Shown here piece by piece: positions 15,120 to 42,545 of a stretch of 64,000 nt of DNA. Positions within the stretch are counted from its first letter, which is position 1. Every line of letters starts with the position of its first letter. The notes under the pieces are model-generated. The model searched no databases and had not been told where the DNA came from. It saw nothing but the letters and a program-made list of their open reading frames with translations. The stretch comes from an uncultured Chloroflexia bacterium (lineage in GTDB: Bacteria; Chloroflexota; Limnocylindria; Limnocylindrales; CSP1-4), in the NCBI GenBank assembly GCA_963748625.1, contig CAVVJT010000010.1, positions 832,001 to 896,000 of the forward strand, written 5' to 3'. The position numbers and the translations under genes were made by a program.

Positions 15120-15273
15120 CGCCTGGATACCGGGCACTCGCGAGGATGACGTCGACCCCGGCATCCGCAACACGACGAACGGCCTCGCGCACGGCGGGAC
15201 GGATCCGATGGCCGGGGTCCAGCAGGGTGCCGTCAACGTCGATGGCGAGGGCCGCGATCACGTGGTCGTTCAT
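15120..15273 (-). pseudogene. 5' fragment of a Cof-type HAD hydrolase, truncated at the repeat
   Basis: MNDHVIAALAIDVDGTLLDPGHRIRPAVREAVRRVADAGVDVILASAR (HAD motifs I and II), then it runs into the repeat. Confidence 0.8.
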
Positions 15274-15306
15274 GGGCGAGGAAGGCTGGCAGCGCACCTG
15301 CCGGGA

Positions 15307-15978
15307 TTACGGAAGCTTGGTGGTGCCGAAGGTCTCGTACCAGTCGGCGGCGAAGGCGTTCACCGCCTGGGTGACATCAGGTGCCCCGAGAGCGGCGCGG
15401 AGCAGCGCCGGGGGCAGCGTGACGGCCGTGGCGCCCGCCTCGAAGGCCGCGCTCACCTGGGCCACGTTCTTGAAGCTGGCGGCCATGATCTTGCACGCCG
15501 CGCCGTGCCGGTCGATGAACTTGGCAAGGGACTTGATGGTGGCGCTGGTGTCGATGTCCAGGCTCTCCATCCGGTTGAAATAGGGCGCGATGTAGTCGGC
15601 GCCGGCCGCGATCGCGAGCATGCCCTGGGTCTTGGAGTAGATGGCGGTGGCGGTCACCCCGATGCCCTCGTCCTTGAGCAGCCGCATCGCGTGGATGCCC
15701 TGCTCCGTGGTCGGGATCTTCGCGTACACCTTGCCGTCGACCTGGTCGAGCAGGCGGTGGGCGTCGGCGACGATGCCGGCGGCGTCCTGCGCCAGCACCT
15801 GGATGTGCAGCGTCCGATCCGGGCCGATGATCTCGCGGATGCGGCGGAAGTGGTTGTAGAAGTCGATCCGGCCCTCGGCCTTGATGATCGTGGGGTTCGT
15901 CGTCACGCCTGCGACCGGGTAGAGCGGCGTCATCTCCTCGATGTCGCGCAGGTTGGCAGTATCGAACAGGATCTCCAC
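15307..15978 (-). CDS. fsa: Fructose-6-phosphate aldolase (FSA-type transaldolase family)
   Basis: ILFDTAN, GVTTNPTI, VYAKIP, AASFKN; Gln in LHIQVL and Tyr in IAPYFNR are the aldolase-type residues (transaldolases have Glu/Phe). Confidence 0.85.
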   Translation of the reverse strand: MEILFDTANLRDIEEMTPLYPVAGVTTNPTIIKAEGRIDFYNHFRRIREIIGPDRTLHIQVLAQDAAGIVADAHRLLDQVDGKVYAKIPTTEQGIHAMRLLKDEGIGVTATAIYSKTQGMLAIAAGADYIAPYFNRMESLDIDTSATIKSLAKFIDRHGAACKIMAASFKNVAQVSAAFEAGATAVTLPPALLRAALGAPDVTQAVNAFAADWYETFGTTKLP

Positions 15979-16006
15979 TCGGTTCCTCGCTTCAGCAGCC
16001 CGGCCG

Positions 16007-16055
16007 AGCCGGGATGGACCAATCAACGCAGCCGGGATGGACCAATCAACGCAGC
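16007..16055 (+). repeat. 23-bp tandem duplication spanning the stop codon of the HAD phosphatase
   Basis: AGCCGGGATGGACCAATCAACGC twice, perfect. Confidence 0.9.
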
Positions 16056-16720
16056 AGGCGAAGCCGGCCTTCCCACACCACCTGCCGGAGGTCGGGAACC
16101 ACTGCCGCCTCATGAGCGACCGGCGCACCCGACCCGACGCGGACGATGCAGGCCACGCCGGCAGCGTGCGCCGCGGCGATCCCCGGCGTGGTGTCCTCGA
16201 AGACCGCGGCTCGCCCTCCACCGACCCCAAGCTGTCGGAGCGCGGACGCGTAGCCCTCCGGGTGCGGCTTGCCGCGAACGACATCGTCGGCGGTGATCAC
16301 GACCCGGGGCCTCGGAAGGCCGGCAGCGCGGATACGGGCATCGAAGAGCGCCGGGCTGGCCGACGTCACGACGGCCCAGCGGTCCGCAGGGAGGCGCGTG
16401 AGGAGCTCCAGGGCTCCTGGGATCATCCGGACGGTGTCGGCGTCCGCTATCTCGATCTCCTCGATGAGGTCGCAGCCCTCAGCCACGAGGTCACCGGGCA
16501 GCCAGGTCGCCACGGTGTCGGGCGATGTCCGTCCATTTGAAGCGGCGAGCACGGTGGCGCCGTCCAGGCCGAAGCGTTCTGCCCAGCGCCCCCACGACCG
16601 GTCCACGCTGGCAGCCGAGTCGACCAGGACGCCATCGCAGTCGAAGATGATCGCCTCGACGCCGGCGAGCAGGGCCTCGCCGGGAGAGGCAGGATCCGCG
16701 CCTGCCACCGACTCAGCCAC
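16046..16720 (-). CDS. HAD-IA sugar-phosphate phosphatase (YfbT/HxpA-like); start approximate
   Basis: IIFDCDGVLVDS, WAVVTSA, GKPHPEGY, VFEDTTPGI. Confidence 0.85.
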   Translation of the reverse strand: MAESVAGADPASPGEALLAGVEAIIFDCDGVLVDSAASVDRSWGRWAERFGLDGATVLAASNGRTSPDTVATWLPGDLVAEGCDLIEEIEIADADTVRMIPGALELLTRLPADRWAVVTSASPALFDARIRAAGLPRPRVVITADDVVRGKPHPEGYASALRQLGVGGGRAAVFEDTTPGIAAAHAAGVACIVRVGSGAPVAHEAAVVPDLRQVVWEGRLRLLR

Positions 16721-16782
16721 GGGGCGTGAGGAGCGGCTCGAGGCGGACGACCGGGTGTGCGCCCGCAAGCCCCGGAGCGGGC

Positions 16783-17922
16783 CTAGAACGTCGAGGCCAC
16801 ATCGATGACCCTGCCCTCGCGAGCGGACTGCTGTGCGGCAAGCATCACCTCGAGCACGTGCCGCGCGTGACGCCCACTCGCGATCGGCTGCACGCCATCG
16901 CGGACGCAGTCCGCAAGGTGCTCAATCAGGGACCCGCGCTGCAGCTCGGCGAACCGGTCGGATCCCACCGGGAAGATGTCGTAGCTCTGCGGCGTGATCC
17001 AGCCGCCAAGGCCGGGCGCTGCGTCAAGCCGGTACACCTCGACGGGCGGCGCTGCGACATCACCGCGGTTGACGAGGAGCGTGCCCTCAAGGCCGAACAC
17101 CTCCATGCGCGGGCTCCGCGAGGCGACCACGTTGTAGGTCCCGTCGATGACGGCGAATGTCGCCTCGCCGAAATCCAGGAGGAGCAGGTTGTTGTCGGGC
17201 GCCGTCACGGGAATGGTCACACCGTCGTACGGGCCGCCACGTGCAATCCGCGTCGGGACCGTGATCCCGGACATGGCCGACACCCGCTTGGCCGCACCAA
17301 GGACGCCTGTGGCCTGGGTGATGCCGTACACCGCCATGTCCAGGAGCGCACCGACGCCGTCCTTGTAGAACTGCGACGGATCGACCGGCCAGGAGAGTCC
17401 GGCGGCCCCGGCGTGCGAGGACTGCACCCGCGCGAAGGCGACCTTGCCGATCGCCCCCCGGGCGACAAGATCCCGTGCGCGCGCCCACTCGGACGCGAGC
17501 ATGTCGGCGGGCGCTGCCACGACGTAGAGGTTCCGGCGATCCGCCAGGTCGAGGAGCTCGTCGGCCTCGGCAAGCGTGGTCGTGATCGGCTTCTCCGTGA
17601 TGAGGTGGCGCCCGGCGTCGAGGATCTGCTTCGAGGCGGTGAAGTGCGCGGGGCCTGGCAGCAGGTTGACCACGGCGTCCAGGTCGAGCGCAAGCAGATC
17701 GTCCAGCGATTCGACCGCCCGGCCGATGTCGTGCGCCTCGGCGACGGCCCGCGCCTGGTCGATGCGCAGGTCGGCGATGGCGATCAGCTCTACCCGGTCC
17801 CGGATCTTGCCCAGGTGCGGCAGGTAGCCATAGCCGATGGTCGCGATCATGCCGGCGCCCAGGACGCCCACCCGCATGCGGGACCCGGCGGCAGGCTGGG
17901 CGGAAGGCATGTCTGCTGTCAT
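16783..17922 (-). CDS. Gfo/Idh/MocA-family oxidoreductase
   Basis: RVGVLGAGMIA, ITEKPI, GALLDMAVY. Confidence 0.9.
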   Translation of the reverse strand: MTADMPSAQPAAGSRMRVGVLGAGMIATIGYGYLPHLGKIRDRVELIAIADLRIDQARAVAEAHDIGRAVESLDDLLALDLDAVVNLLPGPAHFTASKQILDAGRHLITEKPITTTLAEADELLDLADRRNLYVVAAPADMLASEWARARDLVARGAIGKVAFARVQSSHAGAAGLSWPVDPSQFYKDGVGALLDMAVYGITQATGVLGAAKRVSAMSGITVPTRIARGGPYDGVTIPVTAPDNNLLLLDFGEATFAVIDGTYNVVASRSPRMEVFGLEGTLLVNRGDVAAPPVEVYRLDAAPGLGGWITPQSYDIFPVGSDRFAELQRGSLIEHLADCVRDGVQPIASGRHARHVLEVMLAAQQSAREGRVIDVASTF

Positions 17923-19796
17923 GACCCGACTCCTTCGGCTGCGGGCGCCGCGTGCGCCATGCGTCCTCGCTCATCGGCGGCCCAGTTGCGCCGGTAGTTC
18001 GCGTAGTGGATGGCGCCGATCGCCTGGGCGAACTGGGCGACCGTGTAGGTCTCGCTGTCGCGCAGCTGGCGCATGAGGTCCGTGTTGGCCATCTCATCGT
18101 CGGCTACGGCAAGCCAGAGGGTGGGCGCGATGAACCGAGCCCCGCCGACCATCAGGTCGAAGCACGCCCGACGCTTCACGAGCCGGCCGAACAGGATCCG
18201 CTTCTGGACGGCCGGGTCCAGGAGCCACGCGGATTCGTGCCAGGCGACGGCCATGAATTCCCCGATCTCCCAGAAGATCCGGTCAACCGCCGGGTGACCC
18301 CCCTCCTCTGCCGCGGCCATCAGGAACTCGAGCAGCGGCTTGCGCATGTCCTTGGGCTCGGTCGGGACGAACACGCCGTCCTCGGAGACCGTGAGCAGGC
18401 CCCGCTCCAGGAGCTCGGCGAAGAGCGCCGGGTCCTCCTCGGGCAGGTACTTGGCCGCCAGCCGGAAGACGCCGCTCTGGCTCGTGTACTTCTGGAGCGT
18501 GCCGGCGAGCCGCGTGTTGAAGTTGTTGACGCTCCGGACGTCATCGGGGGCGTACTGGCGCTCGGGGTAGCTGCCGAGGTCGATGATGCAGTTGTAGATC
18601 TCGAGGGGGATGTCAGGAATGGTGCCGGCCTCCGTCACCCACCCGGTCCCGAGCTCCGTTCCGAGGGTGTGCGCGAAGACGCCATCGGCGATCGCCGCGG
18701 GGTCAACCACCCCGAGCTCCACAGCGGCGGTGAAGGCCGCCATCGGGCCGTCGTTGACCATGCCGACCACGCCGCCGGGCTTCACGAACGCCCGAAGCGC
18801 CTCGTCGAGGGTCGAGAGCCGCCGGAACTCGGCCTCGTAGGCGGGACCGAGGTGTTCCCGCATGCCGCGGGTCTTGTAGACCTCGCCACCCACGATCTTG
18901 TCGCGTACGACGACGTCCGGGAAGCAGACACCGATGGCATCAAGCCCGAATGGGGCGGACTGCAGCGCCTCCCCAGCGAGCACCGAGGCCTCGATCGTCG
19001 GGAGCAGGGCACCGCGGGCGAACGCCGGGGCGAGCACCTCCGCCATCGCCTCTGGGTCACAGGCACCCCTGACCCTCGCCCCATCGAGTCGCATCAGGCG
19101 GACGAGCAGCAGGATCGGGTCGATGATCTGGTCGATCTCGGTGAAGGCGGCCGGGAACCAGTCGTACTCCAGGAAGCGGGCGACCTGGCCATCGACGGCC
19201 AGGCAGAGCTTGATGTCGGTGCCGCCGATGTCCATGCCGCAGATCGCGGTCCCGTCCATGCCGCTGGTCGCCAGTGTTCCCAGCTCGTGGATCCGGGAGG
19301 CGGGAGCTGTCGCCTGGGCCGCGTCGGCCGGCGCGGCGTCGAGCATCCGGAAGCGGCCGCGGGACGGGCTGCCCGGTTCCGAGATGGCCTCGTCCATGCG
19401 CTCGGAGACATTGACGGCACGGCCGTAGCCGGGGCGCTCGAGCCGCGTTGCCTCGAGGCCGAAGGCCCGCTCGAATGCCGCAGCCAGCTCGGCCCCCTCG
19501 CCATCGTCGCCCTCCGCCTGGAGCGCGATGCCGCGGCCGCCGAGCGTGGAGATGATGTTGTAGCAACCTGCCAGGACGTACTCCGTGACCATCGCCCGCT
19601 CGTCATCTGCCAGCGCCGCGAACCTCGGCAGGCGGAAGAAGAAGGCCTTGCCAGCCTCGTCGAAGCCGTCGAGCGAGGCCGTCAGGACGAACGAGTCCGA
19701 GGGCGGCAGCGCATCGAACCGCTCACGCACGGAGCTGATGTACACGGGTCGGCCCGCTGCGGCGGTGTCGACCAGATCCCGGATGACCTGGCTCAT
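17919..19796 (-). CDS. Large ROK/ASKHA-family sugar kinase-like protein with an uncharacterised N-terminal domain
   Basis: CGMDIGGTDIK, IGVCFPD, VNDGPMAA, TLGTELGTG; ~625 aa, about twice a typical ROK kinase. Confidence 0.7.
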   Translation of the reverse strand: MSQVIRDLVDTAAAGRPVYISSVRERFDALPPSDSFVLTASLDGFDEAGKAFFFRLPRFAALADDERAMVTEYVLAGCYNIISTLGGRGIALQAEGDDGEGAELAAAFERAFGLEATRLERPGYGRAVNVSERMDEAISEPGSPSRGRFRMLDAAPADAAQATAPASRIHELGTLATSGMDGTAICGMDIGGTDIKLCLAVDGQVARFLEYDWFPAAFTEIDQIIDPILLLVRLMRLDGARVRGACDPEAMAEVLAPAFARGALLPTIEASVLAGEALQSAPFGLDAIGVCFPDVVVRDKIVGGEVYKTRGMREHLGPAYEAEFRRLSTLDEALRAFVKPGGVVGMVNDGPMAAFTAAVELGVVDPAAIADGVFAHTLGTELGTGWVTEAGTIPDIPLEIYNCIIDLGSYPERQYAPDDVRSVNNFNTRLAGTLQKYTSQSGVFRLAAKYLPEEDPALFAELLERGLLTVSEDGVFVPTEPKDMRKPLLEFLMAAAEEGGHPAVDRIFWEIGEFMAVAWHESAWLLDPAVQKRILFGRLVKRRACFDLMVGGARFIAPTLWLAVADDEMANTDLMRQLRDSETYTVAQFAQAIGAIHYANYRRNWAADERGRMAHAAPAAEGVGS

Positions 19797-19827
19797 CAAG
19801 AAGCTCCGAAGGGCCGCCGGGGCGACC

Positions 19828-20736
19828 TCACCGTACGGCGAGACCCCGTTCGGCAAACAGGGAACGAAATGCGTTCATCTCGGCCGGCGAGTACGAGGTC
19901 GTGACATCGGCGAACTCGTGGGGCATCCCCATGCGCCGGTACTTCGCGCTCGCGAGCGGGTTGAAGTTGATGAGCTCGACCGGCAGGGCAGGGTCGATCT
20001 CCGCCACGAGGTCGGCGATCGCGCCGAGGTTCTCCGGCGTGGCCGTGTAGCCGGGGACGAGCGGCACCCGCACGAGGATCCGTCCCGTGTCCTGGAGCGC
20101 CGCGGCGAGGCGGCGCAGATTGCCGAGGATGAGCTCGTTCGAGACACCCGTCGCGACCCTGTGCGCTTCGGGATCCGCGACCTTCACATCCACGATGAAC
20201 AGGTCGATCACGGGCAGGAGCGGCTCGATCGAGGACCACGGTGCGTGGAACGATGATTCGAGCGTCGTGGGCAGACCCTGTTCCTTGAGGGCGGCCGCCG
20301 TCTCGAGCACGAACGCGGCCTGGGCAAGCGGCTCGCCGCCCGAGAACGTCACGCCGCCCCCGGAGACCTCGTGGAAGATCGCGTCGCGCCCGACCTCGGC
20401 CACCACCTCGTCCGTCGTGATGTCGCGGCCGTCCAGCGCGAGCGCGTTGCGGGGGCACGCCTCCACGCAGTCGCCGCACTGGGTGCAGGCGGCATGGTTG
20501 ATGTCGACGCCGGTCGGCGTCAGCGTGATCGCCTTGGTGGGGCAGACCTCGGCGCAGCGGCCGGAGTGGCCGCACAGGTTCTCGAAGTGCCACAGCGAGA
20601 TGCTGCGATCGAGCCCTTCGGGGTTCTGGCACCACCGGCACCGGAGGGGACAGCCCTTCAGGAAGACGGTGGTGCGGATCCCGGGCCCGTCATGGACGGA
20701 GAACCGCTGGAGGTCGAAGATCCGGGCCGAGCTCAC
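19828..20736 (-). CDS. Glycyl-radical enzyme activase (radical SAM with ferredoxin insert; PflC-like)
   Basis: HDGPGIRTTVFLKGCPLRCRWCQNPE, ferredoxin-like Cys motifs, GGVTFSGGEP. Confidence 0.95.
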   Translation of the reverse strand: MSSARIFDLQRFSVHDGPGIRTTVFLKGCPLRCRWCQNPEGLDRSISLWHFENLCGHSGRCAEVCPTKAITLTPTGVDINHAACTQCGDCVEACPRNALALDGRDITTDEVVAEVGRDAIFHEVSGGGVTFSGGEPLAQAAFVLETAAALKEQGLPTTLESSFHAPWSSIEPLLPVIDLFIVDVKVADPEAHRVATGVSNELILGNLRRLAAALQDTGRILVRVPLVPGYTATPENLGAIADLVAEIDPALPVELINFNPLASAKYRRMGMPHEFADVTTSYSPAEMNAFRSLFAERGLAVR

Positions 20737-23106
20737 GAGTCTTCGTAGCTGGTCCGCGCGATGATCTCGTTCTGGAGATCCTCGGCAAGCTCGGTGAAGT
20801 AGGCCGTGTAGCCGGCGACGCGGATCGTCAGGTTCCGGTACTTGTCCGGATCCTTCTGGGCGGCGATCAGGTCATCGCGGGTGACCACGTTGAACTGGAC
20901 ATGGTTGATGCGAAGCCGGACGAACCCGCGCAGCATCGAGGAGAAGGCGGCGGCCCCCTCCTCGGACTTGAAGAGGCGCGGCAGGAACTTCATGTTGAGC
21001 AGCGTGCCGTTGCTGCCCAGGTAGGAGTCCACGCGCGCCACGGACGAGAGCAGCGCGGTCGGGCCGCGGTGATCGCGTCCGTAGACGGCGGACATGCCGC
21101 CATCGGCAAGCGGGCGCCTTGGCGGGGCGGCCGTCAGGCGTCGCGCCGACGTTTGCGCCCATCGGGACGTGGGCGCTCACGGTGTAGAGGCCCGTGTGGT
21201 ACCGGCCACCGCGATAGTTCGTGCGGCCCTCGAACTTGGCAGCGAAGTAGTGGACCCACGTGTTGCCGATCTCGTCCACCCACTCGACGTCGTTGCCGTA
21301 CTTGGGCGCCTTGTTGATGAGGATGTGCTGGAGCTCCTCGTCCTGCGCGTAGTTGGTCTGCAGCGCCGCGACCAGGCGGGCCTTGTCGACGGTGCCCTCG
21401 TCGAAGACGAGCTTCTTGACCGCCGCGAGGCTGTCCGCGACGTTGGCCACCTGGATGACCTGGATGCCGGACAGGTTGTAGTGCGCGCCGCCGCGCGTGA
21501 CGTCGAGGCCGCGGTCGAGGCAGTCGTCGATGACCGAGGACAGGAGGGCAGACGGGAGGAGGCGCTGGTGCATCTCCTCGACCTTCTCGCACGCCTCGAT
21601 CATCTTCTCGAAGAAGTAGTCGATCTGGACGGCAAAGGCCTGCTCGAGGTCCTCGTAGGTCGCGAAGTCGGTGAGATAGCCGGTCTGCGGGCCGAGCTGC
21701 GCACCCGTGAGGAGGCACTTGCCATCGTTCATGGCGAGCTCGAGCGCCTTGACGAGGTTGAACATCGCCGCGTCCGACCACCCGAGGGTGTTGCCGTGGG
21801 TGGTGAGCTCGACGCAGCCGACGATCGCGTAGTTCACGGCGTCGGCCGGCGCGATGCCCTGGGCCTCGAGGGCCGGGATGATGGACTCGTCGTTGAAGAC
21901 CTGCGGCATGCCGGAACCCAGGCCGATCACGCGCGTGCACTCGTCGAGGAGCGCGTCAGGCGTGTGCTCGTGGAGCCGGGCGGAGAGGTTGGGCTGCGGC
22001 AGGAGGATGTGGGCCTGCGCCTCGAGGAACAGGTACGAGAGGTCGTTCGACTCGTCCCGGCCCTGCTCGTCACGGCCGCCGAGGGCGACATTGAAGCCGA
22101 TCGGGAAGCCCGCGAAGAACGATGCGCTGTGCGAGTTGCGCAGGTACACGATCTGGTTGAACTTCAGCCAGAGCGCCTCGATCAGCTCGAGGGCGCCTGC
22201 CCGGTCCAGCCGGCCGGCGTCGACGTCCGAGCGGTAGTAGGGGTAGAGGTACTGGTCCGCGCGACCCGGCGAGAACGACGAGGCGTTGCTCTCCATGTGG
22301 AGCAGGGTGAACAGGAACCAGAGTGACTGGACCGCCTCGTGGAAGGTCTCGGCGCCGCCGACGGTGAGCTTGGTGCAGATCCGGGCAACCTCGCGCAGGT
22401 TGGCCGCTCGCTCGGGCGTCTCGGCCGTCGCCGCCATCGCGTTCGCGAGCTCGGCATACCGGCCCATGAAGTCGATCGATGCATCGAGGACGACCAGCAC
22501 GGAGTCGTAGAACTCACGCTGGTCGGGCGCGGCGCTCGCGGCCCGGGCCGCCGCCTCCGCGCGGAGGCCGGCCGGACCAAGGCGGATCCACTTGGCCGTG
22601 TCCGGGCAGATGTGGCCCTGGGCGTGGTCCTTCTGGTTGATCTTGACGACTTTGGCGATCGCGTCGAGAAGCGGGCCATCCTCGGCCCGAAGGGTGTCCT
22701 CGAGCGTCTTGCCCTGCCAGTACGGGAGGATCCGCTCACGGAAGGTGGCGGCATCCTCGGGGTGGACGTTGAACTTGTCCTGGGGCCGCGTCGCCATCGT
22801 GTCGAGCTCGCGGTCGATCCAGCTGATCCCGGCCTCCGGGAAGACAACCCCACCGCGGACACCGGTCGTGCGGTTGCCGACGATGAGCTCGTCCGGGTCG
22901 ATGTGGATCTCGAGCCTGCGCATCGATTCGGCGAGCGACAGGGCGCGCTTGAGGGCTGCGCTGGCGCCCTCATGCGACTGGTAGACGTCCGTGATGATGA
23001 GCGCCTGCTCAATCGACAGGTAGCGCGGCTCGTCGAGCATGCGCTCCTTCAGATCGACGATGCGCTGTGTCAGTCCAGCCTGCGTGGGGTGCTCTGCCAG
23101 GGTCAT
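20733..23106 (-). CDS. Glycyl radical enzyme, PflD (PFL2) clade; +1 frameshift at ~21113
   Basis: RPQDKF, INQKDHAQGHI, ESNASSFSPGR, FFAGFP, LPQPNL and the GCVE Cys loop. The C-terminal RVAGY glycyl loop is in the next frame; removing one base at 21112-21114 gives a ~790-aa ORF. Confidence 0.9.
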
Positions 23107-23131: not shown

Positions 23132-23195
23132 ACCTTATCTGTCCCGTCTCCTCCCGTGAAGTCACATACCTTGCCGATTGGTGGAGGAAAGTGCC
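23132..23195 (-). promoter_or_regulatory. GRE operon promoter: -10 TAAGGT and putative AraC site
   Basis: Motif GATTGGTGGAGGAAAGTG (+ strand, 23176) lies 38 nt from a TAnnnT box. Confidence 0.55.
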
Positions 23196-24192: not shown

Positions 24193-24194
24193 CG

Positions 24195-25193: not shown

Positions 25194-25221
25194 GGCGTTC
25201 GCTCCTCGTGGCGTGGGCGGC

Positions 25222-28618: not shown

Positions 28619-28682
28619 ACCGTAGTCGGCGCGGTCGCTTGTGCCTACCCTCGCTTGTCGCAGATAGGTGGACAGGAATGAC
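28619..28682 (-). promoter_or_regulatory. GMC-GMC-afr-araC operon promoter: -10 TACGGT and putative AraC site
   Basis: GATAGGTGGACAGGAATG at 28663 lies 38 nt from the -10 box. Confidence 0.6.
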
Positions 28683-33691: not shown

Positions 33692-34477
33692 TCATGTCCC
33701 CCCGAACCGGGGTGGGCGACGCTCCCGGAAGCTGGCGAGCCCTTCGCCCGCGTCGTCGGTGAAGGCCGTGAGGCCGCTGCCCAGCGCCTCGAGCGATGCC
33801 GGCACGCGCGGCCGGAGGCCGTCGACCAGCTGCTTAGCGACCTGCACGGCAACCGGCGCCTGGCCTGCGATGCGGAGCGCCATCTGCTGCGTGGCGTCCC
33901 GGAGGTCAGCCGCGGTCACGACCTCGGACAGGATCCCCCAGGCCTCGGCCCGGGGCGCCTCCACGGGCAGACCGGTCAGGATCATCTGCTTCGCGCGCGC
34001 CGGCCCGGCCAGCACGGCGAGCCGGGTCGTCATGCCCCAGCCGGGGATCGTCCCGATGCCGGTCTCAGGCGCCGCGATCTTGACGGTGTCCGCGGCGATT
34101 CGCAGGTCGCACGCGAGCGCCAGCTCGAGACCGCCGCCGTAGGCGATCCCGTTGAGCGAGGCGATCGTGGGCTGGCGCAGCCCGTCGAGCCGATCGATCA
34201 CGCGGTGCCCCAGCCGCACCCAGTGGCGCCACATGTCGATCGGGGCGAGTGACGCCCAGGCGTTGATGTCGGCGCCGGCGCAGAACGCTCGCTCACCCGC
34301 GCCCGTGACCACGACCACGCGAACCGAATCGTCCGCCTCGATGACGTTCAGCATCGACTCGAGACCCTCGAGCATCCCGGGGGTGATGGCGTTGAGCTTC
34401 TCGGGGCGGTCGAGCGTGACCGTGGCGATCGGCCCATCGATGTCGAGGCGCAGGCCGGGGGTCTCCGGGAGGCTCAT
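33692..34477 (-). CDS. Enoyl-CoA hydratase/dehydratase (crotonase family)
   Basis: RPEKLNAI, AFCAGADI, YGGGLELALACD, APETGIG; both catalytic Glu are present. Confidence 0.9.
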   Translation of the reverse strand: MSLPETPGLRLDIDGPIATVTLDRPEKLNAITPGMLEGLESMLNVIEADDSVRVVVVTGAGERAFCAGADINAWASLAPIDMWRHWVRLGHRVIDRLDGLRQPTIASLNGIAYGGGLELALACDLRIAADTVKIAAPETGIGTIPGWGMTTRLAVLAGPARAKQMILTGLPVEAPRAEAWGILSEVVTAADLRDATQQMALRIAGQAPVAVQVAKQLVDGLRPRVPASLEALGSGLTAFTDDAGEGLASFRERRPPRFGGT

Positions 34478-36066: not shown

Positions 36067-37565
36067 CGCGACGCGGCCCCGGGGCGCGGCATCCACCACG
36101 ACGTGCGCGGGCCCAGGTGCATCTGCACCGACTTCAGCTCCGTGAAGGCGTCAATGCTGAACCGCCCGAACTCGCGCCCGATCCCGCTCTCCTTGTAGCC
36201 GCCGAAGGGGAGCTCCGGGTACCCGTCCAGGAACGTGTTGACCCAGATGGTGCCGGCGCGGATGGCGCGGCTCATGCCGATGGCCGTGTCGAGGTCGCGT
36301 GTCCAGACGCCTGCGGACAGCCCGAACGGGGTGGCGTTGGCGATCCGTGCCGCCTCCTCGGGCGTGTCGAACGTCAGCACCGACAGGACGGGGCCGAAGA
36401 TCTCCTCGCGGGCGATCCGCATCGACGGCTCCACGCCCGAGAACACGGTGGGCGCCATGAAGCGGCCGCATTCGGTGTCGAGGCGGCCGCCGCCCAGGAG
36501 CAGGTCGGCGCCCTCGGCGCGGCCGGAGTCCACGAGCTCGACGATCTTGGCGAACTGCTCGTCGGTCGCGATGGCCCCGACCTTGGTCGCAGGATCGAGG
36601 GGGTCGCCGACGGGAACGGTCTGGGACCGCTCCACGACCCGGGCGACGAACTCGTCTGCGATCGAACGCTGCACGAGCAGGCGGCTGCCGCTGTTGCAGC
36701 ACTCGCCCATGTTGAAGTAGACGCCGTAGACAACCGCGTCCAGGGCGGCCTCCAGGTCGGCGTCGGCGAAGACGAGCTGGGGGTTCTTGCCCCCGAGCTC
36801 CAGCTCGACCTTCTTGAGGTTGCTCTTGGAGGCATCGATCACCCGCCGGCCGACATCGGTCGATCCGGTGAAGCTGATCATGTCGACGTCCGGGTGGGCC
36901 GCCAGCGGCGTGCCGATCACCCGTCCTGAGCCGGTGACGACGTTCAGCACGCCGTCCGGGAGCCCGGCCTCCTGGGCCATCTGGGCGAGGCGCAGGGTGG
37001 TCCCCGGCGTGATCTCCGCCGGCTTGACGACGGCCGTGCAGCCCACGGCGAGGGCGAATGGCAGCTTCTGGCTGATGATCAGCAGCGGGAAGTTCCAGGG
37101 GGTGATCATCCCCACCACGCCGACCGGCTCCCGCAGCACCATCCCGAACATCGAGGAGCCCAGGGTGTTGTACGTGTCGCCGTACGTGTGGCGGCACAGC
37201 GTGGAGGCGTACTCCCAGAGGTCGGCGGACGACAGGATCTCGTCGCGCGCCTGGGTCACGGGCTTGCCGCTCTCGAGCGCCTCGACGTAGGCGAGGTCGT
37301 CCGCGTTGGCACGGATGGCCTCGGCGATGCGGTTGAGGATCCGGGCGCGCTCGACGCCGGGCATCATCGGCCACGGGCCCTCGTCGAACGCACGCCGCGC
37401 CGCGGCGACGGCTCGTTCGAGGTCCACCACACCGGCCCTCGGGTAGCGGCCCACCACGACGTCGTGCGCCGGGCTCATCCGCTCGAAGGTGTCGCCATCG
37501 GCAGCGCCGACCCACGTGCCGTCGATGAGGTTCTGGTAGTCGCGGGCGGTGATCGCCGAAGTCAC
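36063..37565 (-). CDS. NAD(P)-dependent aldehyde dehydrogenase (L-sorbosone dehydrogenase-like)
   Basis: ITPWNFP, SFTGST, LELGGKNP, MGECCNSGSR, EEIFGPV; RMSPAHDV and GDTYNTLG resemble the SNDH subfamily. Confidence 0.9.
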   Translation of the reverse strand: MTSAITARDYQNLIDGTWVGAADGDTFERMSPAHDVVVGRYPRAGVVDLERAVAAARRAFDEGPWPMMPGVERARILNRIAEAIRANADDLAYVEALESGKPVTQARDEILSSADLWEYASTLCRHTYGDTYNTLGSSMFGMVLREPVGVVGMITPWNFPLLIISQKLPFALAVGCTAVVKPAEITPGTTLRLAQMAQEAGLPDGVLNVVTGSGRVIGTPLAAHPDVDMISFTGSTDVGRRVIDASKSNLKKVELELGGKNPQLVFADADLEAALDAVVYGVYFNMGECCNSGSRLLVQRSIADEFVARVVERSQTVPVGDPLDPATKVGAIATDEQFAKIVELVDSGRAEGADLLLGGGRLDTECGRFMAPTVFSGVEPSMRIAREEIFGPVLSVLTFDTPEEAARIANATPFGLSAGVWTRDLDTAIGMSRAIRAGTIWVNTFLDGYPELPFGGYKESGIGREFGRFSIDAFTELKSVQMHLGPRTSWWMPRPGAASR

Positions 37566-37584
37566 GAGTGGATGCTCCTTGTGG

Positions 37585-38283
37585 TCAAGCGGGACGCTGC
37601 GTGCCGCCCGTGCGGGCCGCAGCGACGAGGGCGATGAGGTGGGCGACCGCGGGCGTCAGGGCGGCGGGGTCGGCATCGGAGGCCGGGTCTGTGTATGCCT
37701 TGGAGATGAGCGCGGAGCCGAAGCCCAGGCAGGCGGCCCCGGCGCCGATCCACTCGCCGACGCTGGCCTCGGTCGCCTGGACGCCCCCCGTCACCACGAC
37801 CTGTGTCTCCGGGAGCGGGCCGCGGATCGCCCGCAGGAAGGCCGGCCCGAGGCTGTCGCCGGGAAACAGCTTGACGAGCTCGACCCCCGACTCCTCGGCG
37901 GTCACGATCTCCGTCGGCGTCGCGCAGCCGGGGATGTACGGGATGCGACGGCGGTTGCACAGCCGGGCGACATCCGCGGAGAAGCTCGGACCCACGATGA
38001 ACCTTGCGCCGGCCGCGATGTACCGGTCGGCGGCCTCGGGATCACGGATGGAGCCGGCGCCCAACAGGGCATCCGGGTCATGGCGTGCCGCCTCCTGGGC
38101 GAGCGCGCTGAATGCGGACCACGCGCCGGGCCCGCGGTCGGTGAACTCGATCACGCGCGCACCGCCCTCGCGGAGGGCGGCGGTGATCCGCAGGGCCCGC
38201 TCAGCGTCCGGCGTGTAGAACAGCGGCAGGACACCGGCCTCCACGGCGGCGACCAGCACCTCGAGGCGCGGCGAGAGTCTCAA
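37585..38283 (-). CDS. eda: KDPG/KHG aldolase
   Basis: VIEFTDR, LGAGSI, IPGCATPTE, VKLFPG, VTGGV; the TTG start overlaps the kdgK stop. Confidence 0.9.
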   Translation of the reverse strand: MRLSPRLEVLVAAVEAGVLPLFYTPDAERALRITAALREGGARVIEFTDRGPGAWSAFSALAQEAARHDPDALLGAGSIRDPEAADRYIAAGARFIVGPSFSADVARLCNRRRIPYIPGCATPTEIVTAEESGVELVKLFPGDSLGPAFLRAIRGPLPETQVVVTGGVQATEASVGEWIGAGAACLGFGSALISKAYTDPASDADPAALTPAVAHLIALVAAARTGGTQRPA

Positions 38284-39326
38284 CGCTCCACCCTCCCTGA
38301 TCCTGAACCGCCGGCCAGGGCATCGACTTCCGCGACCGAGACGAGGTTGACGTCGCCGCGGATCGAGTGCTTCAGGCAGCTGGCGGCCACGGCGAACTCG
38401 AGGGCGGCCTCCGCCGTTCGTCCGTCGATGAGGGCGTAGATGAGGCCCGCCGCGAAGGAATCGCCCGCCCCTACGCGGTCGACGATGGGGGCAATGCGGT
38501 ACGAGCGAGCGACATGGAAGGCATGGGGCGTCCACAGGACGCCGGACCAGGTGTTCTCGGACGCGGACACCGAGCCACGCTGCGTGAAGGCAATCGTGCG
38601 CAACCTGGGGAACCGCTCCGCGAGTCGTGCGGCCACGTCGGCGTAACCGGCGGGATCCACCCTGCCGTCAGCGACGGAGCTGCCCGGGGCGCGGATGCCG
38701 AAGACCCTGTCGGCGTCCTCCTCGTTGCCGATCAGGACATCCGCCTCGGCCACGATCCCCGCCATGACGTCACCCGCTTGGGCTCCCCAATCCCAGAGCT
38801 TCGCCCGGTAGTTGAGATCGACGGAGACTGTTGCCCCCGCAGCACGGGCCGCCCGGACGGCCGCAAGGGCGGCCTCGGCAGCAGGGGCGGACAGGGCCGG
38901 CGTGATCCCGGTGGTGTGGAACCAGCCCGCACCGTCGAGCAGGGCCGTCCAATCGTAGGCCGCTGCCCCCGCCCTCGCGATGCACGAGTCAGCCCGGTCG
39001 TAGATGACGCGACTGGCGCGCTGGGAGGCGCCGGGCTCGAGATAGTAGACGCCCAGGCGTCCCGCCTCCGAGGCGATGCCCGACGTGTCCACGCCGAGGC
39101 CGCGGAGAAACCGGATTGCCCCATCACCCAGGTCATTGCGTGGGACACGCGTGACAAACCGGGCAGGGACGCCGAAGCCCGCCAGCGATGCGGCAACGTT
39201 CGCCTCGCCGCCTCCATACGTTGCGTCGAAGGACGGCGCGCCAGCGATCCGCATCCCGTCGGGCGCGCTCAGGCGAAGCATCACCTCGCCAAAAGTGACG
39301 ACTCGCGGGGTTGTCTCGTTCGCCAC
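38280..39326 (-). CDS. kdgK: 2-keto-3-deoxygluconate kinase (PfkB family)
   Basis: VTFGEVMLRLS, YGGGEANVA, VIYDRADS, DLNYRAKLW, DRVGAGDSFAAG. Confidence 0.9.
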   Translation of the reverse strand: MANETTPRVVTFGEVMLRLSAPDGMRIAGAPSFDATYGGGEANVAASLAGFGVPARFVTRVPRNDLGDGAIRFLRGLGVDTSGIASEAGRLGVYYLEPGASQRASRVIYDRADSCIARAGAAAYDWTALLDGAGWFHTTGITPALSAPAAEAALAAVRAARAAGATVSVDLNYRAKLWDWGAQAGDVMAGIVAEADVLIGNEEDADRVFGIRAPGSSVADGRVDPAGYADVAARLAERFPRLRTIAFTQRGSVSASENTWSGVLWTPHAFHVARSYRIAPIVDRVGAGDSFAAGLIYALIDGRTAEAALEFAVAASCLKHSIRGDVNLVSVAEVDALAGGSGSGRVER

Positions 39327-39524
39327 GTCCGTTCGCAATCCTCGTACTGTAGGCGATCTTGTCGGGCGCCCCGAATGCAGCAGGGACGCCCGACAAGAGG
39401 AGGAGGAGCAGAGGCCACGGTCCAGCGAGACCGCCACAGGGCGGTCGCCACAGCATGAAGTCGTCGAGAGCGGACGTCGCCGGCCTCCTCCAGCCATAGC
39501 GCCAAACCGCAACCTTCACCGTCG

Positions 39525-39589
39525 ACAGTACGCGCGACCGGCGGCCGCACAACACTCACTGGCATGGCCGATAGGTGGACAGGAGTGAA
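39525..39589 (-). promoter_or_regulatory. kdgK-eda-ALDH-CoA transferase-ECH operon promoter: -10 TACTGT and putative AraC site
   Basis: GATAGGTGGACAGGAGTG at 39570 lies 39 nt from the -10 box. Confidence 0.6.
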
Positions 39590-39833
39590 CGACGTAGCCG
39601 GGCGCAAGCACGATCGGCACGGGTCGGCCATCGTGGGTCAGCGGCGAGTGCAGTCGTGTCCACCTGAAGGCGAGCGATCGGACTTGACGCGCCGGGCCTG
39701 CTGTCCTCAGCATCGAGAGTGTTCAGCGGCGAGTGCAGAACGTCCGACGTCGCCCTCGCATCACGGGTGGACAGACACGTCGGCCCGGTCTCCCGCGAGG
39801 ACCGCATCCACACCCCGCCCGAAGGAGCGCCCG

Positions 39834-41210
39834 GTGATCATTGACGAGACTGTGACCCTTGAGGACCTGCGTGCCCCGCTCGCCGCGTTCTGGCCCGTGT
39901 CGGGAGCCAGGATCGCCGGCCTGTGCGAGACCTGGGACGCCTCGAAGGGCTCGCCCGTCTTCACGGTCCGGGGCCGGTACACGAGCCAGGGCTGGACCGA
40001 GTGGACCCAGGGCTTCCAGTTCGGGTGGGCGATCCTCCAGTACGACGCCACGGGAGACGAGCGCTTCCTCGAGATCGGGCGGCGGGGCACGGTCGAGCAC
40101 ATGGCGCCGCATGTCTCGCACATCGGCGTTCACGATCACGGGTTCAACAATGTCAGCACGTACGGCGCACTCCGCCGGCTGATGCTCGAGGGGCGCATCC
40201 CCCACGACGAGTGGGAGCTCGCCTTCTACGAGCTCGCCCTGAAGGCGTCGGGTGCCGTCCAGGCGGCGCGCTGGCGACCGACCCACGAGGGCCCCGGATA
40301 CATCTACTCGTTCAACGGTCCGCAGTCGCTGTTCGCCGACACGATCCGGTCGGTGCGATCGCTCTTCCTTGCGCATCGGCTGGGTCACGCGCTCATGGGC
40401 GAGAACGACGAGCGGATCTCGCTGCTCGGCCGCGGCATCGAGCACGCCCGCACGACCGCGCGCTGGAACGTCTTCTACGGCGAGGGCCGGGATGTGTACG
40501 ACGAGTGGGGACGGGTGGCCCATGAGAGCGTGTTCAACGTGAACGACGGGCGGTTCCGCACGCCGTCGACGCAGCAGGGGTACTCGGGGTTCTCGACGTG
40601 GACCCGGGGCCTGGCCTGGATCATCGCGGGCTACCCGGAGGAGCTCGAGTTCGTCGAGAGCCTCTCGGACGACGAGCTGGCCCCGCACGGGGGCCGCGAC
40701 GACGTCACCGCGATGCTGTTGCGAGCGGCGCGCGCGTCGTGCGACTTCTACATTGCCAACACCGCCTCGGATGGCGTCCCGTACTGGGACACCGGCGCTC
40801 CTGGCCTCGTGGCCATGGACGGCTGGCGGGACCGGCCGGCCGACCCGTACAACCGGCATGAGCCCGTGGACTCCTCGTCGGCGGCCATTGCCGCCCAAGG
40901 GCTGCTGCGGTTGGGCCGGTACCTGTCGAGCCGAGGCGACCAGGACGGCTCCCGGTACACCGCGGCCGGCCTCATCGCCCTGCGGACCGTGCTCGGCCAG
41001 CCATACCTCTCGACCGATCCCGCCCACCAGGGACTGCTGCTCCACGGCGTCTACCACAGGCCGCGCGGCTGGGATCTCGCCCCGGACGGTGACGGCGTCC
41101 CGCGCGGCGAGGCGGTGATGTGGGGTGACTACCACCTCGTCGAGGCGGCCTTGCTCGCCCAGCGGCTGCTGGACGGGGCGCCGTACTACAGCTTCTTCGG
41201 ACCGCTCTGA
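39834..41210 (+). CDS. Glycoside hydrolase family 88 (unsaturated glucuronyl hydrolase-like)
   Basis: EWTQGF, HDHGF (Asp), LFADTI (Asp), WTRGLAW, PYWD, DSSSAAIAA, WGDY; AAGGAG SD. Confidence 0.85.
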   Translation: MIIDETVTLEDLRAPLAAFWPVSGARIAGLCETWDASKGSPVFTVRGRYTSQGWTEWTQGFQFGWAILQYDATGDERFLEIGRRGTVEHMAPHVSHIGVHDHGFNNVSTYGALRRLMLEGRIPHDEWELAFYELALKASGAVQAARWRPTHEGPGYIYSFNGPQSLFADTIRSVRSLFLAHRLGHALMGENDERISLLGRGIEHARTTARWNVFYGEGRDVYDEWGRVAHESVFNVNDGRFRTPSTQQGYSGFSTWTRGLAWIIAGYPEELEFVESLSDDELAPHGGRDDVTAMLLRAARASCDFYIANTASDGVPYWDTGAPGLVAMDGWRDRPADPYNRHEPVDSSSAAIAAQGLLRLGRYLSSRGDQDGSRYTAAGLIALRTVLGQPYLSTDPAHQGLLLHGVYHRPRGWDLAPDGDGVPRGEAVMWGDYHLVEAALLAQRLLDGAPYYSFFGPL

Positions 41211-42388
41211 GGGGTCTCCGTGTCGCTGCGGCGGTCCGGTCCGCGTGCCGGCTCACGCAGCACTCCCGAGAGCAGCAGGCCGATTGCGACAAGTCCGCCG
41301 GTGAGGGTCAGGGCACGCAAGGTCCCCGTCTGCTCGCCGAGGAAGCCGATCAGCGGCGGGCCGGCCAGGAACGCGACGTAGCCCATCGTCGCGACCACGC
41401 TCACCCGGGCGGCGGCATGCTCGGGCTCATCGCCCGCTGCGCTCATCCCGACTGGGAAGCCGAGCGCGACCCCGAGGCCCCAGAGCACGGCGCCTGCCAT
41501 CGCGATGGCGAACTCGGAGCTCCAGATGATCAGCGCGAGACCAACGAGTGCGAGCAACCCGAACAGGCGAACGATGAGGACCCGGCCATGACGGTCGATC
41601 AGCCCTGGGCCGAACCAGCGCCCCAAGGTCATTGCGGCCAGGAAGAGGGCAAAGGTCAGCGTGGCGAGCGCGGCGGACACGCCGTAGCCGTCAATGATCG
41701 CGACAGCGAGCCAGTCGTTGCCGGTGCCCTCGGTGAAGGCCGCAGCGAACACGAACACGCCGATCAGGATGGTGCGTCGCTCGGTCCATGCCGCCAGCGG
41801 GCTTCGGCCCCCGCCCCCGCCGGCCTCCTCGGGCGGATCAGGGAGGAAGTCGCGAACGGCGACCTGACCGACGACTGCCACGATCGCCGCGACGGCGACA
41901 AGGTGGACGGATGTCGGGACGCCGACTGCCACCATCGCCGCGCCGAGGAGTGCACCAGCGACGGTCCCAATGCTGAAGCCGGCGTGGAAGCGGGGCATGA
42001 TCGCCTTTCCGAGCGCCCGCTCGACGGCCGACCCTTCGACGTTCATCGCGACGTCCCACGTTCCATTGCCGACGCCGAACGCGAAGAGCCCAACGACCAC
42101 CGGGATCACTCCGACCTGCTGGCCAAGCCCAACCGTGGCGAGGCCTGCGGCGGCAACGAGCGACATCGCCCCGACCGTCCGGGCCGTACCGATGCGACGC
42201 ACAACCAGGCCGGCCATGGGCATCGAGAGCACCGAGCCGGCGGCAATGGCCAGGAGCACCAGGCCCAGGCTGCTGGGTGACAGCTGCAGCGCATCTCGGA
42301 TGCTCGGAATCCGCGACGCCCAGCTCGCGAACGCGAACCCGCTGAGGATGAAGACGGCGTACACGGCCATCTTCGCTCGAGCGGTCAC
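41186..42388 (-). CDS. MFS transporter
   Basis: 12-TM pattern; WASRIPSIR, DVAMN, MPRFHAGFSIG, AMTLGRW. Confidence 0.9.
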   Translation of the reverse strand: MTARAKMAVYAVFILSGFAFASWASRIPSIRDALQLSPSSLGLVLLAIAAGSVLSMPMAGLVVRRIGTARTVGAMSLVAAAGLATVGLGQQVGVIPVVVGLFAFGVGNGTWDVAMNVEGSAVERALGKAIMPRFHAGFSIGTVAGALLGAAMVAVGVPTSVHLVAVAAIVAVVGQVAVRDFLPDPPEEAGGGGGRSPLAAWTERRTILIGVFVFAAAFTEGTGNDWLAVAIIDGYGVSAALATLTFALFLAAMTLGRWFGPGLIDRHGRVLIVRLFGLLALVGLALIIWSSEFAIAMAGAVLWGLGVALGFPVGMSAAGDEPEHAAARVSVVATMGYVAFLAGPPLIGFLGEQTGTLRALTLTGGLVAIGLLLSGVLREPARGPDRRSDTETPQSGPKKL

Positions 42389-42545
42389 GGTCGCGCGACC
42401 TCAGCGCCAAGGGCATGGAAGGTTCCGGCTGGCCCGCTCGTGACGAGGCCATCGACCCGCTCCGGCGGCGCGACAACGTATGGGCTCACCGTGCTCACCT
42501 TACCCGATGCAGGACGACGGTCCGTGCGGTGCGAGCTTCGTGGAA

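Follow-up and report, generated by a model that had tools for sequence, protein, structure and literature searches.

How a respiring bacterium could open the ring of a 1,5-anhydro-hexitol, and why it would keep genes of a radical and of an oxidative chemistry side by side, is the question raised by a gene block of an uncultured Chloroflexia bacterium (Limnocylindria; Limnocylindrales; CSP1-4). The block occupies positions 15120-42545 of a 64,000-nt stretch of DNA, hereafter the window (positions 832,001 to 896,000 of contig CAVVJT010000010.1 in assembly GCA_963748625.1; G000:C10:832001-896000 in our numbering), and it sits between two direct repeats of ~215 nt that lie 27,624 nt apart. It carries an orthologue of 1,5-anhydro-D-fructose reductase (AFR, EC 1.1.1.292), a glycyl radical enzyme (GRE) close to PflD of Escherichia coli, and a set of oxidoreductase and acyl-CoA genes. 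An initial annotation, made from the sequence of the window, had read the block as a two-branch island for 1,5-anhydro-hexitols. Comparative analysis supported this reading in the placement of the GRE, in AFR and in the oxidative gene set, and went the other way in three respects, since a fructose-6-phosphate aldolase (FSA) gene was present in 0 of 80 related loci, the GRE is frameshifted as assembled, and it is 39% identical to PflD. In our judgement the evidence is evenly poised on whether the block serves, as a composite island, the catabolism of 1,5-anhydrofructose (AF), anhydromannitol (AM) and anhydroglucitol (AG), assembled from two modules that occur separately elsewhere.

In PMC13450708 and PMC12441222, YbiW and PflD of E. 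coli are given as the C-O lyases of AG-6-phosphate and AM-6-phosphate, the sugars being taken up by the phosphotransferase system (PTS) and the products being cleaved by aldolases. This anhydroglycolysis (Ma et al. 2024, in the summaries given by these two articles) comprises PflD/PflC, YbiW/YbiY, the Frw PTS, FsaA/FsaB and GldA.

The genome that holds the window has a size of 4.6 Mb in 10 contigs, is 98.3% complete with 7.7% contamination, and encodes a haem-copper oxidase and a single GRE. The window has a G+C content of ~70%, and the nearest named homologues of its proteins belong to metagenome-assembled genomes of Chloroflexota. Third-position G+C (GC3) served to call the genes, and sequence searches of Pfam, NCBIfam and the PDB served to name them. 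On the minus strand, twenty genes extend from 39512 down to 15307, in the order KdgK-Eda-aldehyde dehydrogenase-CoA-transferase-enoyl-CoA hydratase, then binding protein-ATPase-permease-permease of a transporter, then GMC2-GMC1-AFR-AraC, and finally GRE-activase-kinase-Gfo1-HAD-FSA; a GH88-like gene on the plus strand and a major facilitator superfamily (MFS) gene complete the block. The transporter, the two GMC oxidoreductases, the aldehyde dehydrogenase (ALDH), the CoA-transferase, the enoyl-CoA hydratase (ECH), KdgK and Eda listed by the initial annotation were all recovered by profile searches. It had passed over the AraC gene, a second Gfo/Idh/MocA gene, the HAD phosphatase, the MFS gene, a truncated Cof-type HAD gene and the +1 frameshift of the GRE.

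AFR and the oxidative gene set

The enzymes of the oxidative half are encoded as follows.

24195-25256, minus strand: AFR orthologue, 353 aa
25222-26820, minus strand: GMC oxidoreductase 1 (GMC1), like choline dehydrogenase or alcohol oxidase
26846-28366, minus strand: GMC oxidoreductase 2 (GMC2), like the large subunits of fructose dehydrogenase and FAD-glucose dehydrogenase
33692-34471, minus strand: ECH, from Pfam and NCBIfam searches
34474-36099, minus strand: fused family-I CoA-transferase, from Pfam and NCBIfam searches
36063-37565, minus strand: ALDH, like betaine-aldehyde dehydrogenase

The product of 24195-25256, called an Afr homologue before, is judging from its alignments clearly a full-length AFR orthologue. 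It matches the solved enzymes 4KOA and 2GLX at 304.5 and 299.5 bits, with residues 26-353 aligned to 2-329 of 333, and the next best PDB match reaches 92 bits. The hallmarks of AFR are the lysine of an EKP motif, a D...H pair and the dinucleotide-binding motif GxxGxxxxA. The corresponding stretches AEKPLA, LDVTCHD and GLIGAS of the window protein are identical in the aligned 2GLX. It is the single gene of this kind in the genome. A search of plasmid records with AFR returned 35 records, all below 60% identity, and 3 of 15 loci from a metagenome scan were close.

A neighbourhood search found the oxidative genes of the block together in other bacteria. In Sinorhizobium meliloti the order is LacI-AFR-CoA-transferase-ECH-ALDH-ABC transporter-GMC (506 aa)-SDR-GMC (551 aa), followed by a glycerate kinase, and there is no GRE at this place. 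All six enzymes have counterparts in the window, at identities of 49.5% (AFR), 63% (CoA-transferase), 44% (ECH), 57% (ALDH), 45% (GMC2) and 49% (GMC1). Roseibium porphyridii has AFR-CoA-transferase-ECH-ALDH-LacI-ABC transporter-GMC, i.e., five of the six shared enzymes, again in a locus with no GRE. AFR adjoins GMC2 and an MFS gene on an Arthrobacter plasmid and on a Bradyrhizobium plasmid, the order ECH-ABC transporter-GMC2-GMC1-AFR recurs on a metagenome contig (L117), and KdgK stands beside ALDH-CoA-transferase-ECH in a congener of the window organism (genome G028). GMC2 is 44-49% identical to the AFR-adjacent GMC of four other bacteria, and the window CoA-transferase is 63% identical to the rhizobial one versus at most 58% to any from 400 other Chloroflexota genomes. 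By these neighbourhoods, the oxidative half is a conserved unit centred on AFR that is present without a GRE in aerobes, and its genes are more than chance neighbours.

Pairs of CoA-transferase and ECH genes were also seen with distant GMC-like genes in two other Chloroflexota (L130 of G177 and L133 of G354), the latter of which also has a sugar ABC transporter there. This hints at a wider CoA-dependent scheme for odd sugars.

GH88-like, KdgK and Eda genes and the shared upstream motif

Three further genes of the block resemble those of uronate metabolism.

39564-41210, plus strand: GH88-like protein, resembling unsaturated glucuronyl hydrolase (UGL), on weak evidence
38280-39512, minus strand: PfkB kinase of the 2-keto-3-deoxy-sugar-acid type (KdgK)
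37585-38250, minus strand: KDPG/KHG aldolase (Eda), from Pfam and NCBIfam

KdgK scores 478 bits with the kinase half of NF041633 and 220 bits, below the cut-off, with the profile of 2-keto-3-deoxygluconate/2-keto-3-deoxygalactonate kinase. The GH88 assignment of the initial annotation is weak. Residues 301-530, the C-terminal half of the protein, are the only ones to align with solved UGLs (positions 200-388, E 4e-11), and the protein clusters with members named UGL at 0.97 in the Atlas, which we take as a lead only; the Pfam family PF07470 stayed below its gathering score (13.7 versus 26.6 bits).

The claim that three operons of the block share an upstream motif was borne out, and a candidate regulator lies within the block.

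23173-23185, minus strand: motif copy 1, upstream of the GRE gene
28660-28672, minus strand: motif copy 2, upstream of GMC2
39567-39579, minus strand: motif copy 3, upstream of KdgK
23314-24192, minus strand: AraC-family regulator (Pfam), which may bind this motif

Within the 64 kb the word TCCACCWATCKGC was counted three times, always on the minus strand and upstream of the GRE, GMC2 and KdgK operons. Shuffled sequences gave a mean count of 0.26 and 0 of 100 reached three, a comparison that is post hoc because the word was derived from the same sites. An exact search of the other loci returned the window's own copies only. A related word, GTCACTTnnnTCCACC, stands at matching places in relatives. 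The variant GTCACTTnnnTCCACCnnnCnGC lies upstream of the GRE gene in L003, L013, L014 and L015 and upstream of GMC2 or KdgK in L010, L013, L014, L015 and L078, and since the variant recurs at matching sites in relatives it lends the motif independent support. The three operons have one operator-like motif in common, to which the AraC protein probably binds, and control by one regulator, as previously proposed, is what the motif by itself would suggest.

These data bear on a simpler view, in which the block encodes one linear pathway: GMC2 and AFR would supply the radical route with AM made from AG and AF, and ALDH, CoA-transferase, ECH, KdgK, Eda and the GH88-like protein would serve an unrelated acid sugar or uronate. 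Seven GRE loci of anaerobes outside the Chloroflexota do contain GMC2-like genes, and GH88, KdgK and Eda, here named from Pfam, NCBIfam and PDB matches, are classic unsaturated-uronate genes. Further points of this kind weigh on the assignment of the oxidative half to AM: rhizobial AFR clusters were found without an adjacent GH88, KdgK or Eda gene, and in other Chloroflexota both CoA-transferase/ECH pairs and the four CoA-transferase homologues compared (from a set 41-58% identical) lie in unrelated contexts. In addition, PMC12441222 describes the conversion of AM to mannose by C-1 hydroxylation in Sinorhizobium, from which the oxidative route proposed below differs. On the other side, AFR is followed by CoA-transferase, ECH and ALDH in the S. 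meliloti and Roseibium loci, which lack a GRE, and the motif of the GRE and GMC operons is found at the KdgK operon as well. Our own first reading had been of this type, in that the GMC enzymes and AFR merely fed the radical route and the acid-CoA genes had no connection with it; it was dropped on the S. meliloti order AFR-CoA-transferase-ECH-ALDH-ABC-GMC. We regard a single linear pathway as unlikely, and take the composite island further.

A glycyl radical enzyme that is sister to PflD

The radical half is led by two genes.

20733-23106, minus strand: GRE, PflD sister; N-terminal part 21118-23106 and glycine-radical part 20733-21095, split by an extra C
19828-20736, minus strand: GRE activase (radical SAM)

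The GRE contains a PFL-like domain (PF02901, 675 bits) and a glycine-radical domain (PF01228, 97.5 bits) with the motif RVAGY, and these two domains lie in different frames. The activase exceeds the cut-off of TIGR02494 (302.8 versus 174.35 bits). The best solved relatives of the GRE are PflD (8ID0, 481 bits; 8YJO, 476), glycerol dehydratase (1R8W, 460) and YbiW (370).

A tree was built with the intact orthologue of the congener G028, which was searched against 1.84 billion representatives, the 150 best hits being taken. After 19 of the 150 had been dropped for falling outside 700-900 aa, the remaining 131 were combined with E. coli PflD and YbiW and 18 locus proteins (FastTree, 151 sequences, midpoint root). 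The window GRE falls in a clade with support 1.0, which groups first with two single representatives and then, at a support of 0.998, with the clade of E. coli PflD; the joint clade holds 17 of the 151 tips, and YbiW falls elsewhere. Thirteen alignment columns are common to the two clades and occur in less than 15% of the other sequences; they include NQxDxxQ and ESNAS, both of which are present in the window translation. The Cys loop reads GCVEL and aligns with the Cys loop of PflD (CxE motif; the role of this motif in GREs is treated in section 5.7 of PMC13450708). The enzyme thus falls in the PflD clade, as the initial annotation had it, and by its position in the tree it is a sister family of PflD and not PflD itself.

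As assembled, the gene is broken. The frame of 744 aa is PFL-like throughout until similarity ends past ...ATPDGRPAKA, and the glycine-radical domain resumes in another frame. Compared with the G028 orthologue (809 aa, intact, 92% identical), the +1 frameshift amounts to a single surplus C within a run of Cs near 21116-21118. Bridging short-read contigs from four runs show a 1-base gap at 21111-21115 in 5 of 5 listed pieces; they derive from relatives that are mostly 90-95% alike, so that their bearing on the frameshift in the window genome is indirect. In a search of sequencing runs, the best run contained 0.24 of the query words. In G028 the orthologue of Gfo1 (L009 2921-4058) matches in two frames, residues 1-291 and 291-379, which suggests a likely frameshift there and fits single-base errors in these assemblies. 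An assembly error is most likely also for the GRE, because the extra base lies in a C run, G028 is intact, and its Gfo1 shows a similar break; a true pseudogene is the alternative, and the break counts against a working radical route.

GRE matches were found in only 4 of 61 genomes of the window's genus and of a sister family of its order (its own genome included), and G028 is the sole other genome among them with an orthologue of the window GRE. Other GREs were seen in G028, G012 and G030 (L010, L004, L005), at 26-37% identity to PflD, YbiW and the window GRE. The second GRE of G028 (L010 6209-8557; G028:C3:~112200-114560) directly follows the cluster's ABC transporter and is accompanied by an activase of its own.

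The kinase and the recurrence of the radical module

The gene next to the activase encodes a protein that sequence searches left unnamed.

17919-19796, minus strand: sugar kinase of ~623 aa, ROK/hexokinase fold with an extra N-terminal domain, outside any Pfam family

No Pfam, NCBIfam or PDB sequence match was obtained, and no Pfam family, PF00480 included, was reached even at E 10; a profile search of the PDB gave glucokinase alone, at E 0.65. The AlphaFold2 model (pLDDT 88.8, pTM 0.90) placed ROK-family proteins first in Foldseek (mostly kinases, namely glucokinase, NanK and NagK, besides Mlc-type regulators; probability 1.0, TM normalised to the target 0.54-0.73), and the match covers the C-terminal ~440 residues, with an extra N-terminal domain of ~180 residues. 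The phosphate-1 motif DxGGT is present as DIGGTDIK, which is invariant in 29 of 29 sequences. From the model, the protein is predicted to be a sugar kinase with a ROK fold; "ROK-like" in the initial annotation was therefore right for the fold and finds no echo in sequence matches. There are 1221 homologues, none of them informatively named. An HgdC-type electron-transfer ATPase was considered and rejected, as the fold matches are ROK sugar kinases and one Cys alone is invariant. That idea had come from the fusion of kinase and activase in two proteins, P0119 (890 aa) and P0123 (854 aa), which carry the radical-SAM domains PF04055 and PF13353.

A scan of species genomes with the 623-aa kinase gave 340 relatives, of which 80 loci were kept; many of the contigs are short, so absences are weak evidence, and ECH was not counted. 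The loci span Spirochaetota, Planctomycetota, Bacillota, Myxococcota, Actinomycetota and Pseudomonadota among other phyla. A GRE is present in 61-63 of the 80 and an activase in 63, an ABC ATPase in 43, a binding protein in 34, AraC in 22, GMC2 in 15, Gfo1 in 9, AFR in 8 and GMC1 in 7, and neither FSA nor CoA-transferase nor ALDH in any. The eight AFR genes, all in Chloroflexota, lie less than 10 kb from the kinase, and contig L115 has the order GMC1-AFR-AraC-GRE. A second GRE, 51-59% identical to E. coli YbiW, occurs in 14 of the 80 loci. Of the 16 loci that bear a canonical ROK kinase, 12 have a second GRE. One Propionivibrio locus groups the 623-aa kinase, GMC2 and the ABC transporter with a GRE of 69% identity to E. 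coli PflD. These contexts tie the radical module to the known anhydro-hexitol-phosphate lyases.

A shikimate-dehydrogenase-like gene is found in 29 of the 80 loci (e.g., L073:4860-5723 and L066:11932-12858), in anaerobes, and might be an alternative anhydrofructose reductase. The idea that GMC2 and this reductase travel together was abandoned because the counts are too small (54 non-Chloroflexota loci: both in 3, GMC2 only in 2, the shikimate-dehydrogenase-like gene only in 21, neither in 28).

FSA, transporters and accessory genes

The remaining genes of the block are given below.

15307-15978, minus strand: FSA-type fructose-6-phosphate aldolase
16046-16768, minus strand: HAD-IA sugar-phosphatase-like protein (Pfam; NF008610 at 122.9 bits, below the cut-off of 282)
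16783-17922, minus strand: Gfo/Idh/MocA oxidoreductase 1 (Gfo1), distant from characterised members, best PDB match DgpA1 at 62 bits
28784-33429, minus strand: CUT2 sugar ABC transporter, with permeases at 28784-29782 and 29786-30790, ATPase at 30787-32277 and binding protein at 32371-33429
41186-42388, minus strand: MFS transporter, a 36% identical homologue of which adjoins AFR on the Arthrobacter plasmid

The FSA, like the activase, passes the cut-off of its family (NF009299, 283.5 versus 214 bits), in keeping with the initial annotation. It is 35% and 40% identical to E. coli FsaA and FsaB and keeps the K, Q, T and the Tyr of APY(V/F)NR, its YIAPYFNR aligning with YVAPYVNR of E. coli. FSA carries Tyr where transaldolase has Phe. 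The TAL/FSA family has five genes in the genome, among them a classical transaldolase encoded close to the window's right end (62076-63161, plus strand) and genes at G000:C10:452949-453752 and 471486-472262; two longer paralogues are 22% identical to the FSA of the block. A tandem word of ~24 nt, GCTGCGTTGATTGGTCCATCCCGG, stands twice in the gap between the HAD and FSA genes (window ~16000-16050, minus strand), just upstream of the FSA start.

The radical half might act on a different sugar or polyol, the closeness to PflD reflecting common chemistry only. The identity of 39% to E. coli PflD (over 785 residues) leaves room for this, as does the PflD equivalog NF007437, reached at 576 bits against a cut-off of 1109 by a query, the 744-aa frame, that lacks the C-terminal domain. 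The placement of the GRE is further limited by the closeness in score of glycerol dehydratase to PflD (460 versus 481 bits) and by the composition of the tree, which was built without labelled glycerol dehydratase, CutC or HypD; the shikimate-dehydrogenase-like genes and the weak similarity of the binding protein to ribose binders (83 bits) speak for another substrate. Moreover, FSA beside the GRE is peculiar to the window genome, and the FSA cut-off of TIGR00875 was reached in 0 of 5 module-bearing genomes; this gap is not specific to the new GRE clade, since three of the five carry YbiW orthologues. The opposing evidence is the sister position to PflD with signature residues in common, the YbiW orthologues and the PflD-bearing Propionivibrio locus in the company of the kinase, and the AFR genes near the kinase in Chloroflexota. 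On balance a different substrate seems improbable to us, and anhydro-hexitols are retained as the candidate substrates of the module.

Borders and integrity of the block

The borders of the block are marked by a tRNA gene, two repeats and a gene fragment.

14854-14928, plus strand: tRNA-His (GTG), found by ARAGORN and by Rfam RF00005 at 68.8 bits, its 3' end opening the left repeat
14904-15135, no strand assigned: left direct repeat, made up of the tRNA 3' end and ~190 nt that contain a long internal hairpin
42528-42760, no strand assigned: right direct repeat, with a degenerate remnant only of the tRNA-His 3' end
15124-15297, minus strand: N-terminal fragment of a Cof-type HAD phosphatase (PF08282, 34.9 bits, covering 42 of the 255 positions of the profile), truncated at the repeat

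The repeat-bounded nature of the block was therefore confirmed, and its left repeat starts from the 3' end of tRNA-His, the single match of an Rfam scan. The two repeats align over 54 nt at 89% and 151 nt at 97%, and a second search gave 216 nt at 94% (E 1.5e-90). About 120 nt of them (14960-15140; 42595-42720) belong to a dispersed hairpin-forming element (-95.7 kcal/mol, z -2.2), with weaker copies of ~75% identity at G000:C7:625783-625900, C10:317862-317985, C7:37265-37386 and C10:976450-976562; it resembles a repetitive extragenic palindromic sequence or a miniature inverted-repeat transposable element. No integrase domain was found in 20 open reading frames scanned at the edges and flanks or in the island genes. 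The gene cluster of G028 lies in a different, tRNA-free context and its gene order also differs. A search for the empty site with the right flank in 60 relatives of the genus gave 11 sdaA loci, with no tRNA nearby. Mobility of the block is plausible.

The Cof-type HAD fragment adjoins FSA, and in E. coli ybiV, which encodes a Cof-type phosphatase, adjoins ybiW and fsaA. Just beyond the right repeat, an L-serine dehydratase gene (42793-43863, minus strand) retains its beta domain, but of the alpha domain just the final ~25 residues are left. In the relative G069 there are ~750 more bases between the matching parts, so that the window copy looks internally deleted.

Such features could also indicate a decaying mosaic, i.e., a patchwork between repeats whose GRE is dead and whose genes form no functional unit. 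The frameshift, the truncated phosphatase at the left edge, the serine dehydratase that lacks ~750 nt outside the right repeat, the lack of an integrase among the scanned frames and the different gene order of G028 can all be read in this way, and so can the G+C content of the ABC part of the block, 0.64-0.67 against 0.71-0.75 in the flanks. Set against this, all genes of the block other than the GRE are open with coding-type GC3, operon order and motif are kept in relatives, and an extra base in a C run, together with the similar break in G028, is expected from assembly error. We consider a mosaic of this kind very unlikely.

Proposed pathways

For the composite island, the ABC transporter and possibly the MFS protein would import the sugar, AFR would reduce AF to AM, and GMC2 may oxidise AG to AF. 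Pyranose 2-oxidase performs the latter reaction according to the abstract of PMC8135088. GMC2 could instead oxidise C1 of AM to give mannose, which would match the published physiology. The convergence of both halves on AM, as put forward in the initial annotation, would follow from the known product of AFR and the known substrate of PflD.

In the radical route, as suggested by homology and gene context, the ROK-fold kinase would make AM-6-phosphate. The PflD-sister GRE, switched on by its activase, would open the ether ring to 1-deoxyfructose-6-phosphate, and FSA would cleave this into glyceraldehyde-3-phosphate and hydroxyacetone. As a whole this would be a non-PTS version of the E. coli anhydroglycolysis.

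The oxidative route would start with the oxidation of C6 of AM by GMC1 and ALDH to 1,5-anhydromannuronate, a tetrahydropyran-2-carboxylate; the likeness of the two enzymes to choline dehydrogenase/alcohol oxidase and to betaine-aldehyde dehydrogenase suggests such a pair for primary alcohol to acid. The CoA-transferase would form the thioester, a 3-hydroxyacyl-CoA, from which ECH, a crotonase, would eliminate the 4-OH to leave an enol ether unsaturated at 4,5. The ring would then open to 2-keto-3-deoxy-D-gluconate (KDG) upon hydration, either spontaneous or catalysed by the GH88-like protein, and KdgK and Eda would take KDG to pyruvate and glyceraldehyde-3-phosphate. GH88 enzymes hydrate the enol ether of unsaturated uronates, and reduction of the alginate-derived 4-deoxy-L-erythro-5-hexoseulose uronate (DEH) gives KDG. 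The manno isomer would yield the KDG configuration since C1 is already CH2OH, as in DEH reduction, and the gluco isomer would not give KDG, which would make sense of AFR yielding AM instead of AG.

On this scheme the AFR-GMC-ALDH-CoA-transferase-ECH set would be an undescribed radical-free and oxygen-compatible route from AM, through ring opening, to KDG, which Chloroflexota pair with a PflD-like route under one AraC-type switch. We put this forward tentatively, as an attractive possibility that we hold to be less probable than the composite island as such. The haem-copper oxidase and the single GRE fit an organism able to use either route according to oxygen. The radical half would represent a known pathway in a new version, and the oxidative half may be a new pathway.

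Relation to known systems

Like the E. coli anhydroglycolysis, the block combines an FSA-type aldolase with a PflD-superclade GRE and the activase of that GRE, and an AraC-type gene is nearby in both; in E. coli, pflD stands with yijO, fsaB and gldA, and ybiW with ybiV and fsaA. In contrast to E. coli, the window is without a PTS, and uptake by the CUT2 transporter with phosphorylation by the 623-aa ROK-fold kinase is predicted instead. Its GRE forms a separate sister clade, gldA is absent, AFR and GMC genes are upstream, and the host is a respiring member of the Chloroflexota. A literature search, in which the gene-cluster survey of Ma et al. 2024 was not covered, returned nothing linking PflD-type enzymes with an ABC/kinase module.

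With the Sinorhizobium AF pathway (Kuhn et al. 2006, by way of PMC12441222) the block has in common an AFR orthologue of ~50% identity and the same six-enzyme neighbourhood, whereas the rhizobial transporter is another ABC type, a GRE is missing there, and the published step is a C-1 hydroxylase. In PMC12441222 the AM-converting enzyme of Rhizobiaceae is stated to be still unidentified. The literature search found no description of roles for the conserved CoA-transferase, ECH, ALDH and GMC genes of the Sinorhizobium AFR cluster, and nothing that links anhydro-sugars with CoA-transferase, ECH or GMC genes.

Two further pathways offer chemical likenesses. In the catabolism of alginate and other unsaturated uronates, a 4,5-unsaturated uronate is converted to DEH and KDG, on which KdgK and Eda then act. 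The proposed 4,5-unsaturated pyranuronate, the end product KDG, KdgK, Eda and the GH88-like gene would be shared with it. The difference is that in the window the double bond would be made by a crotonase on a CoA thioester and not by a polysaccharide lyase, and no DEH reductase would be needed because C1 is already reduced. In the hydroxymethylfurfural/furoate (Trudgill) pathway, a GMC oxidase and aldehyde oxidation lead to a ring-2-carboxylate, and opening of the cyclic ether takes place at the stage of the CoA thioester. That pathway differs in its aromatic furan ring and its molybdenum dehydrogenase, and the likeness drawn here is one of reaction scheme.

Significance

AG and its relatives are common sugars derived from starch and glycogen, and the only bacterial ring opening resolved enzyme by enzyme is the strictly anaerobic route of E. 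coli. PMC12441222 points out that a probiotic lowering 1,5-AG in patients with glycogen storage disease type Ib or G6PC3 deficiency would need an oxygen-tolerant enzyme. The block and the rhizobial AFR cluster together name six candidate genes for an oxygen-compatible route, and S. meliloti is cultivable. If true, the oxidative route would give a role to the genes in the AF cluster of Sinorhizobium that still lack an explanation. The block also defines a widespread and as yet unnamed kinase family, with its 1221 homologues and 340 loci in species genomes, and the sister clade of PflD would extend anhydroglycolysis to non-PTS bacteria in many phyla.

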